4,245 nucleotides of DNA from a virus (Duplodnaviria; Heunggongvirae; Uroviricota; Caudoviricetes). The notes under the pieces were generated by a model that saw only the letters and a program-made list of their open reading frames with translations, did no database searches and was not told where the DNA came from. Positions within the stretch are counted from its first letter, which is position 1, and the number at the start of each line of letters is the position of its first letter. Both the position numbers and the translations under genes were made by a program. The stretch lies in IMG/VR virus record IMGVR_UViG_2671181188_000006; one strand, given 5' to 3'. Shown piece by piece: positions 2,190 through 2,967 of this stretch.

Positions 2190-2753
2190 ATGACTGAATT
2201 AACCAAAGAATGGCTACAGAACACGATTACCGGAATTGAGTCATCACGGGATGAAATACCGTTCGGACTCGATGAAGATCAAAACAACATGCTTACCGCA
2301 TTAAAAATTGCACTGGCATCACTGGCATCAGTATCGGATGAACGGGCAGCCTATGAATTATTTATGGAGAAGCGTTTCGGGGAATCTGTAGATCGCCGCA
2401 GAGCAAAAAATGGCGATAGAGAATACATGGCATGGGATATGGCGCTTGGCTGGATTATCTGGTGTCACCGCGCCGCCATGCTTCAGGCTGGAAACTTTCG
2501 GGAAAATAAGGGTTCGTCAACCAATAATTTTCGGATAATCTCGGAAACGTCAACCAACTCTCCGGCAATCCCTGATGAGGTGTTGTCCGCAATCCTGAAG
2601 GTCGCCAGGCTTCGTGCAGATTTCGATGCTTCTGAAGTGGACAGGCGAGGTATCGGTAGTTGTCTGGATGAGGCCGAGCAAGAACTTATCGTTACCATTA
2701 ACGAATACGCCAGTCAGATCGCAGTAGAAGCGACACAGGGGGAGAACCAATGA
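2190..2753 (+). CDS. Hypothetical protein (187 aa), function unknown; first gene of a cargo module upstream of the hok remnant
   Basis: This is a 564-nt ORF on the same strand as all neighbours. The ATG at 2190 is the first in-frame start after TGA at 2184-2186. The stop TGA at 2751-2753 overlaps ATG 2750 of a downstream micro-ORF. I cannot assign a family from sequence alone. Confidence 0.7.
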   Translation: MTELTKEWLQNTITGIESSRDEIPFGLDEDQNNMLTALKIALASLASVSDERAAYELFMEKRFGESVDRRRAKNGDREYMAWDMALGWIIWCHRAAMLQAGNFRENKGSSTNNFRIISETSTNSPAIPDEVLSAILKVARLRADFDASEVDRRGIGSCLDEAEQELIVTINEYASQIAVEATQGENQ

Positions 2754-2827
2754 GCCGGCCAGATGCATTTGCAGGCGTTGCTATAGCTATTGCTTTTCTA
2801 GTATATGTTATTTGTCGGTGGGGGTAA
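2750..2827 (+). CDS. Micro-ORF, 25 aa (MSRPDAFAGVAIAIAFLVYVICRWG), hydrophobic putative single-pass membrane peptide
   Basis: GGGGGAG (2737-2743) lies 6 nt before ATG 2750, and the start overlaps the stop of the 187-aa gene (ATGA). It contains a 16-residue hydrophobic core. It is below the size cutoff of the ORF track. Confidence 0.4.
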   Translation: MSRPDAFAGVAIAIAFLVYVICRWG

Positions 2828-2862
2828 AAACGTTCGCCGGGATTCACACCAAGGGAGGGAAT

Positions 2863-2967
2863 ATGTCGGATGATATTTCACTGGTAATGGAAGGCGCTCT
2901 GGCTGTTATTGCTGTTGTGGGTGTTTACTGCCTGGTTGTGTTTTTGATGGAGCGCCTGGGGAACTGA
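2863..2967 (+). CDS. Micro-ORF, 34 aa (MSDDISLVMEGALAVIAVVGVYCLVVFLMERLGN), putative single-pass membrane peptide
   Basis: A strong SD, AGGGAGG (2852-2858), sits 4 nt before ATG 2863. A ~23-residue hydrophobic segment is flanked by an acidic N-terminus and a short charged C-terminus. The stop is TGA at 2965-2967. Confidence 0.45.
   Translation: MSDDISLVMEGALAVIAVVGVYCLVVFLMERLGN

Follow-up and report, generated by a model that had tools for sequence, protein, structure and literature searches.

A three-gene accessory block upstream of hok/sok that probably belongs to the backbone of Rac/Qin-type Escherichia coli lambdoid prophages

We propose, with a probability of about 60%, that positions 2190-2967 of the caudoviricete sequence IMGVR_UViG_2671181188_000006 (a stretch of 4,245 nucleotides (nt), referred to as the window) represent a conserved backbone accessory block of Rac/Qin-type Escherichia coli lambdoid prophages. 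The window comes from an E. coli O157:H7 lambdoid prophage adjoining mtfA and a tRNA-Ser gene, and the block contains three plus-strand genes, which encode a protein of 187 amino acids (aa; 2190-2753) and two very small peptides of 25 aa (2750-2827) and 34 aa (2863-2967), the latter two termed here the micro open reading frames (micro-ORFs). These three ORFs, the ATGA overlap at 2750-2753 and the strong Shine-Dalgarno (SD) sequence GGGAGGG at 2853-2859 are all present in the sequence as given in a preliminary description of this DNA, and the hydrophobic character it assigned to both peptides is confirmed by grand averages of hydropathy of 1.24 and 1.40 and by apolar runs of 17 aa in the 25-aa peptide and 19 aa in the 34-aa peptide. 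The same description regarded the segment as a variable cargo cassette occupying the position of relBE in the Qin prophage of E. coli K-12, and thus as part of a defense or addiction hotspot, and this we do not uphold. The block recurs in approximately 730 genomes and relBE in K-12 is the exception, the three genes have no defense or toxin-antitoxin signature, and the slot that does vary in content lies downstream of hok.

The conservation of the block is evident from its distribution. The segment 2080-3000 is present as 100% identical copies in 344 of 5426 complete E. coli genomes, and the segment 2747-3010 is found at 89-98% identity in about 730 of the 5426, with a median of 3 copies per carrier genome; the block is also present in 88 IMG/VR phage contigs. 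The order is that of an EaA/DUF551-type gene followed by a 25- or 27-aa ORF, the 34-aa ORF, a palindrome and hok/sok. Without exception among 87 scorable instances, the micro-ORFs are preceded by a member of the EaA/DUF551 group, with 70 ending in ...WMPLPEPPQEV.. and 16 in the same way as the 187-aa protein, that is, after the module designated M3 below, while on the other side the palindrome is followed by the 5' motif of the hok mRNA at 65-66 nt in 85 of 87 instances, most of which encode an intact 51-aa Hok. The same order of EaA/DUF551-type gene, 34-aa gene and hokD is present in four annotated E. coli loci (L002, L003, L004, and L128), where the small genes that separate the EaA/DUF551-type gene from the replication genes also vary from locus to locus. 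K-12 Qin shows no homology to the window until 3197, a point 14 nt short of the hok start codon, and hence relBE replaced the hok promoter, mok and sok in K-12 together with whatever lay upstream of them. Judged from these alignments, the three-gene block is the common arrangement and Qin is derived, and there is no boundary shared with alternative cassettes. Comparison across related prophages therefore identifies the segment upstream of hok as a conserved block rather than a variable cassette, and there is a caution here for the triage of such regions, as the cargo swap is apparent only against K-12 Qin, which is the rearranged exception. On the two points that the preliminary description had singled out as contrary to its proposal, a phage housekeeping family at this position and a lack of conservation of the micro-ORFs, we find a recurrent phage family at this position, though an accessory and not a housekeeping one, and micro-ORFs that are conserved.

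The two micro-ORFs are, as indicated by their patterns of nucleotide substitution, genuine conserved coding genes under purifying selection. The first encodes the putative single-pass membrane micro-protein MSRPDAFAGVAIAIAFLVYVICRWG, is ATGA-coupled to the 187-aa gene, and is preceded by the SD sequence GGGGGAG (2738-2744), which is located inside the last codons of the 187-aa gene. The second, preceded by the SD at 2853-2859, encodes another putative single-pass membrane micro-protein, MSDDISLVMEGALAVIAVVGVYCLVVFLMERLGN, in which an acidic N-terminus and the Arg of an ER/DR motif that follows the transmembrane segment suggest an N-out/C-in orientation. IMG/VR contigs were gathered by means of the palindrome downstream of the micro-ORFs, which avoids selection on the ORFs themselves, and both micro-ORFs are present in 88 of the 128 instances obtained in this way. 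The 34-aa ORF is intact in all 88 and occurs as 14 nucleotide variants, which relative to the window have proportions of synonymous differences (pS) of 0.15-0.23 and of nonsynonymous differences (pN) of 0.026-0.04. The first micro-ORF is intact in about 85 of the 88 as variants of 25-28 aa that include an in-frame 6-nt indel; in one copy the frame is shifted, and in a few others the C-terminus is altered by two residues. Its ATGA coupling to the upstream gene (TAATG in locus L035) persists in 85 or more of 87 instances. Taken over the micro-ORFs as a whole, 87 of the 88 instances count as intact. Variable sites at codon positions 1, 2, and 3 number 8, 5, and 18 in the 25-aa ORF and 6, 5, and 16 in the 34-aa ORF, giving pooled values of 14, 10, and 34 over both micro-ORFs (p = 0.0002).

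A diverged allele of both micro-ORFs is found in L035 (IMG/VR 2778261453_000015, reverse strand ~660-1100), where DNA of ~75% identity lies between near-identical flanks and encodes MSWPDAFAIVGITMAIAIIVYSICRWL and MSDDILLAMEGALAVVAVMAIYCLVVFLIDRRGG. Compared to the window, pS and pN are 0.76 and 0.25 for the 25-aa ORF and 0.41 and 0.15 for the 34-aa ORF, and both SD sequences are retained, including that of the 34-aa ORF, even though the spacer between the two ORFs has diverged. The L035 allele is present in none of the 5426 complete E. coli genomes, in which the best match is 80%. The homology of the micro-ORF module itself starts at the SD sequence at 2738-2744, and where the 27-aa ORF follows a true DUF551 gene, an equivalent SD sequence (AGGAGG) is conserved in the final codons of that gene. 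That the final codons of the upstream gene move together with the micro-ORF module is explained by the SD sequence of the first micro-ORF, which they contain.

One could instead suppose that the micro-ORFs are untranslated and that their conservation is due to a cis-acting RNA or DNA element, serving either hok/sok regulation or recombination at a module boundary. The micro-ORF segment always adjoins hok and ends at the conserved palindrome, its ORFs are very short, and the NCBI Prokaryotic Genome Annotation Pipeline (PGAP) leaves the 25-aa ORF unannotated but calls the 187-aa and 34-aa ORFs (the latter WP_001278460) hypothetical proteins. We nevertheless regard this explanation as very improbable, as it does not fit with the third-position bias and a pN well below pS, or with the in-frame indel and the conservation of the SD sequences and of the start/stop coupling, or with a ~75% identical allele that keeps both peptide sequences while the spacer between them diverges. 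In addition, hok and the palindrome occur in the absence of the micro-ORFs in 30 loci, so that hok does not need them in cis.

The micro-protein genes are best regarded, then, as coding genes of a very restricted distribution. Neither peptide has a PHROG, Pfam or PADLOC match, a match of the 34-aa peptide to the PADLOC Cmr5 profile being at chance level (E = 0.027, 13 bits), and the database names of their relatives are all 'hypothetical.' An exhaustive phmmer search of 1.84 billion representative proteins recovered the 34-aa family as 6 near-identical clusters (at 50% identity), and no member of it turned up when 100,044 species-representative genomes were scanned twice with degenerate patterns, which together indicate a distribution limited to a narrow range of E. 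coli-type prophages. The literature on DUF551, hokD, O157, and small proteins contained no functional work on these genes that we could find, and no ribosome-profiling or proteomic evidence for translation of the micro-ORFs was found in the literature.

The large gene of the block is a new architecture, consisting of scaffold modules without a C-terminal domain, within an uncharacterized mosaic family. From its alignments, the 187-aa protein is a recombinant member of the EaA/Ea22/DUF551 group that has kept the N-terminal and central modules of the group and lacks the C-terminal DUF551 domain. The alignments and a map of the DNA mosaic divide it into module M1 (aa 1-47, 2190-2330), module M2 (aa 48-100, 2331-2489), a disordered, low-complexity linker or hinge (aa 101-128, 2490-2573), and module M3, a predicted helical hairpin (aa 129-181, 2574-2732), and C-terminal to M3 there is a tail, TQGENQ, and no DUF551 domain. 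The statement in the preliminary description that this protein has no recognizable family holds for Pfam (E <= 0.1), NCBIfam and PADLOC, in which it has no match, but not more generally, given matches to five PHROGs and 4326 homologs, most of them named 'DUF551 domain-containing protein' in a database search. The PHROGs are 14306 (E = 1.3e-34, aa 93-181), 660 (E = 1.2e-17, aa 48-98), 60, 3323, and 5117, none with a known function. Among the relatives that carry DUF551, the best share 70-94% identity with the 187-aa query over 72-97% of its length. Relatives recombine M1, M2, and M3 and typically run on past the hinge or M3 into a linker and a C-terminal DUF551 domain; in the alignment those of 264-325 aa span 97% of the 187-aa protein before this extension, and the O157 protein ends after M3, before it. 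A search with the C-terminal 60 residues alone returned just 8 close relatives and did not deepen the alignment.

The mosaic nature of the gene is also apparent at the DNA level. Positions 2202-2487 are 94-97% identical to parts of free-phage genes annotated as EaA, Ea22 or DUF551, positions 2467-3010 are 97% identical to a locus whose corresponding gene (P0092, 165 aa) has a different N-terminal half, and positions 2726-3010 are 89% identical to the sequence at the 3' side of a true DUF551 gene. The last eight codons of the 187-aa gene (EATQGENQ*) align in DNA with the ends of DUF551 genes (EPPQEVRQ*). Single modules recur in genes annotated as EaA, Ea22, DUF550 or DUF551 in Shiga toxin (Stx), P22-like and N15 phages, as well as in Salmonella, Klebsiella, and Erwinia phages, and one full relative, with M1, M2, M3, and DUF551, is located in an early-left 'ea' region beside an Ead_Ea22 gene. 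A 118-aa ORF (1214-1570) two genes upstream of the 187-aa gene matches PHROGs 492 and 368, and it has a match to Ead_Ea22 that is below threshold (E = 0.004, 18 bits, with a cut-off of 27); these matches point to a second fragment of an Ea22-type mosaic family in the same early-right region.

Several observations weigh against a functional accessory block, mainly by way of the large gene. The host prophage is defective, as IS1203 splits its integrase gene and its terminase gene is frameshifted, and constraint on the 187-aa gene is weak, with a ratio of nonsynonymous to synonymous change (omega) of 0.5-0.8 for M1 and M3 against an 80% identical relative; taken together, these two properties mean that the large gene could be functionless. 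The AlphaFold2 model of the protein is all-helical with a disordered hinge and is of low confidence (mean predicted local distance difference test (pLDDT) values of 52 and 54 in two runs, with alignments of 17 and 58 sequences whose members are mutually too alike to help), and these values make the description of the protein as a helical scaffold a weak one. A Foldseek search of BFVD and PDB with this model gave no match at E <= 0.001, and a PDB sequence search with the profile of the 187-aa family gave none at E <= 1, the sensible Foldseek matches being limited to single-module sequence relatives, namely N15 gp45 and an Erwinia phage protein. The structure and profile searches suggested in the preliminary description thus provided PHROG relatives but no significant fold match. 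Moreover, expression from the early rightward operon is deduced from gene order, and a consensus scan could miss a weak internal promoter, while the analogy with Ea22 discussed below would rest on shared mosaic architecture, the Ead_Ea22 domain being absent.

Some of these observations would be expected if the 187-aa ORF were a functionless remnant of the DUF551 family, deprived of its C-terminal domain through deletion or recombination and now drifting within a defective prophage, with only the micro-ORFs, plus hok/sok in the genomic copies, being held by selection. The domain is indeed missing even though the last 8 codons align with the 3' ends of true DUF551 genes, the omega values for M1 and M3 compare with 0.1-0.3 for the micro-ORFs, both the integrase and the terminase of the prophage are disrupted, and L003 and L004 have obvious DUF551 pseudogene fragments at the same spot. 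We consider decay of this kind rather unlikely, however. The ORF is intact and identical in 344 genomes, and its ending, M3 followed by a stop codon, is also found behind the other N-terminal half (P0092), in other strains and with the same downstream genes; its occurrence behind different N-terminal halves indicates that the architecture lacking DUF551 has spread by recombination. The end of the gene would, in any case, be retained, because it holds the SD sequence and the coupling site of the first micro-ORF.

The preliminary description had also put forward the three genes as a candidate toxin-antitoxin or abortive-infection module. In such a module toxicity would come from one or both peptides, and the 187-aa protein would serve as sensor or antitoxin. 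Both peptides are small, strongly hydrophobic and conserved, as are type I toxins, they adjoin a bona fide membrane toxin locus, and the region is rich in accessory genes. A promoter antisense to the peptide ORF is a feature needed by a type I antitoxin RNA, and a weak promoter-like site antisense to the 25-aa ORF is present on the minus strand (2828-2800, TTTACC-17-TATACT, 9 of 12 promoter matches), although it is at chance level in the scan. We judge the proposal unlikely on several grounds. No toxin, antitoxin or defense component was matched by any of the three genes in PADLOC-DB v2, Pfam or NCBIfam, and no Rfam antitoxin RNA was found within 2750-2967 at E <= 1, a search that a novel RNA could escape. 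The block is backbone-like, with several copies per genome, and is not a variable cassette, and it has no promoter of its own in a consensus scan, with its first peptide coupled to an early-operon gene. Furthermore, the peptides remain constant although their large partner is freely swapped (for a DUF551-bearing or another protein), a pattern that speaks against a sensor and an effector that have co-adapted.

A backbone accessory block accords better with these results, and its downstream border is marked by the palindrome at 2975-2997 (CGATATGGGAATTCCCATATCG, written as CCG-TATGGGAATTCCCATA-TCGG, with a 16-bp core at 2978-2993), which is always downstream of the micro-ORFs and forms the upstream boundary of the hok locus. 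It is near-perfect in the window and a perfect 22-24 bp in most relatives, and in 115 of 124 IMG/VR instances a fixed 65-66 or 84 nt separates it from the hok mRNA 5' motif on its downstream side, irrespective of whether the micro-ORFs are present, a spacing that holds even where the flanks on both sides differ. The 30 loci in which the palindrome and hok are found without the micro-ORFs show that it belongs to the hok side. As RNA it folds with -15.6 kcal/mol, but with no U-tract it does not qualify as a canonical terminator, and it may instead serve as an operator, as a hairpin for RNA processing or as a boundary at which the hok module recombines.

The hok/sok type I toxin-antitoxin locus itself extends from 3042 to 3374 on the plus strand, with the start of the hok ORF at 3211 and a terminator at 3347-3364. 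The hok/sok leader is intact (Rfam sok RF01794 at 3042-3216, 115 bits vs. a gathering score of 59). The hok ORF of the window is broken after codon 16 (3259-3262), where ~90 nt are replaced by AA for a net loss of 88 nt relative to PV15-279, and thus Hok reads MKQQKAMLIALIVICL and is then out of frame, compared to an intact Hok of ~51 aa in most related loci. The 344 full-length genomic copies are each ~88 nt longer than the window (4333 vs. 4245 nt) and match it in two pieces. Either this deletion is specific to the strain or the toxin sequence of the window has been edited. In L035 the hok leader is cut after AATCTGAGGC and is followed by a gene for a DNA cytosine methyltransferase-like protein in place of hok.

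Among the inspected loci the position that changes in content is downstream of the hok terminator. This slot (3369-3445), between the terminator and the genes for a 92-aa protein and a DUF968 protein, is nearly empty in the window. In K-12 Qin (L126, 4602-5025) it contains rem in an insert of ~420 bp, in L002 (O39 strain F8704-2) a pair of genes for a helix-turn-helix protein and an ImmA/IrrE metallopeptidase, and in L003 and L004 other hypothetical genes. The order hokD-rem-ydfU that had been assigned to the right end of the window is therefore true of K-12 Qin, where the order is relB-relE-hokD-rem-ydfU-ydfT, but not of the window, in which rem is absent and the hok ORF is broken. The 92-aa ORF (3446-3724) was considered as Rem and has no similarity to K-12 Rem. 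Conservation of this ORF, which precedes the DUF968 gene (phrog_1212), extends across these prophages, and the homologous DNA in K-12, which is 86% identical, is in an unannotated gap between rem and ydfU.

Upstream of the 187-aa gene, a plus-strand region at 2156-2192 combines a putative module-boundary junction, recognized by a hairpin fold and a recurring motif, with the ribosome-binding region of the gene. It consists of an SD-like AGGAG (2159-2163), a GNRA-tetraloop hairpin, ACCGCCC-GAAA-GGGCGGT (2164-2181; -15 kcal/mol, z = -4.7), and the ATG start codon at 2190. The motif CAGGAGRCCGCCCGAAAGGGCGGTAR(N)ATG occurs upstream of at least five unrelated gene starts in other prophage loci and resembles a linker at a module boundary; it may also act as a ribosome-binding site bridged by the hairpin, which would move the SD sequence into reach of the 187-aa start codon. 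A 28-aa ORF (2107-2193), which has an ATGA overlap with the 187-aa start, is probably not a gene, as its start codon is lost in the relative L014. A second small hairpin, GAGGG...CCCTC (~2129-2148), is kept in several loci in the stretch upstream of the 187-aa gene.

The gene order in PV15-279 places the three genes in the rightward early (nin-type) region. It reads cI-like and cro-like genes, ydaT, replication genes, DUF1627, four small hypothetical genes and the 187-aa gene, followed by the 34-aa gene, hokD, the 92-aa gene, DUF968 (ydfU-like), rusA, and Q. Consensus scans, which a weak promoter could escape, found no plus-strand promoter consensus or intrinsic terminator within 2060-3000 and, specifically, no plus-strand sigma-70 consensus in 2060-2190 or 2700-2862, and there are no Rfam families at E <= 1 within 2064-2967. 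From this position on the rightward transcript and the lack of an internal promoter or terminator consensus, we infer that the three genes would be co-expressed after induction. Their expression would come from the rightward delayed-early transcript, at a point between the replication genes and Q and immediately before hok/sok, with repression in the lysogen keeping all three off and induction or infection switching them on as a set. The 187-aa protein may be an oligomeric adaptor or modulator, by analogy with the pro-lysogenic role described for Ea22 of lambda and Stx phages, with an activity that is possibly weakened by the loss of the C-terminal domain and possibly degenerating. The two peptides may insert into the inner membrane, the same compartment as Hok, and act in the lytic program. 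Prophage hok/sok has been reported to facilitate the release of phage Sp5 in O157 (PMC8621323), and a lytic role at the membrane is thus the most economical guess for its constant neighbors. The specific biochemical function of any of the three genes is, however, much less certain than their assignment to a backbone block.

A more specific and more speculative idea, one that we hold to be doubtful, is that the micro-proteins, co-inherited with hok/sok and produced from the early lytic transcript, are partners of Hok, forming with it a three-peptide inner-membrane unit that sets membrane depolarization or the timing of lysis or blocks superinfection; within such a unit the peptides could be co-toxins or a protein-level brake on Hok. 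To our knowledge hok/sok is thought to be controlled by RNA only, and such partners, if they exist, would add a protein layer to this system. Irrespective of this, purifying selection is clear for two very small membrane-protein genes, one of them unannotated in RefSeq, that are tightly linked to hok/sok and are multi-copy in most Shiga toxin-producing E. coli, and they could have a bearing on lysis timing, prophage induction physiology or exclusion in the prophages of enterohemorrhagic E. coli.

Compared to known systems, the 187-aa protein has most in common with Ea22 of lambda and Stx phages (Ead_Ea22, PF13935; Ea22_V2 with DUF551). Published work presents Ea22 as mosaic and DUF551 as a domain that moves between proteins (PMC10834534; PMC4776307), a picture that matches the modular 187-aa protein. 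Both would be non-essential early lambdoid proteins of shuffled modules with helical N-terminal and central parts, the C-terminal domain of the Ea22 group is exchangeable, and the hinge (aa 94-128) of the 187-aa protein is common to DUF551 genes in the exo-xis region of Stx phages. The 187-aa protein differs, however, in that it lacks both the Ead_Ea22 Pfam signature and a C-terminal globular domain, and its gene is in the rightward nin-type region whereas Ea22 is encoded between exo and xis. The DUF551 proteins (PF04448; YfdS of CPS-53 and the P22-type EaA) are similarly close, as thousands of them have the same N-terminal 100-135 residues and, in Rac/Qin-type prophages, occupy the same spot and are followed by the same two micro-ORFs and hok, but the 187-aa protein has no DUF551 domain and its gene retains only the last ~8 codons of the DUF551 3' end. 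The relBE genes of K-12 Qin, a type II toxin-antitoxin system, share with the block a location directly upstream of the hokD coding sequence but have no sequence or domain relation to it, and as relBE also replaced the hok promoter, mok and sok, their presence represents a different event. The micro-proteins resemble Hok (hokD/relF; hokW-sokW of Sp5) in that Hok is also a small single-pass membrane peptide, with which they are co-inherited. They differ from it in having no Hok similarity, mok-type leader, fold-back mRNA or Rfam-detectable antisense RNA, and in being coupled to an upstream protein gene, and hok also occurs without them. The 34-aa peptide was considered as a relative of YoaI from its length, acidic N-terminus, and 'ER.G' tail, but BLASTP gave no alignment, and the resemblance is one of size only. 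It is in this respect, with their size, single-pass topology, and pairing, that the two micro-proteins are like the small membrane proteins encoded by the E. coli chromosome, such as the 34-aa YoaI and the adjacent pair YoaK and YoaJ.

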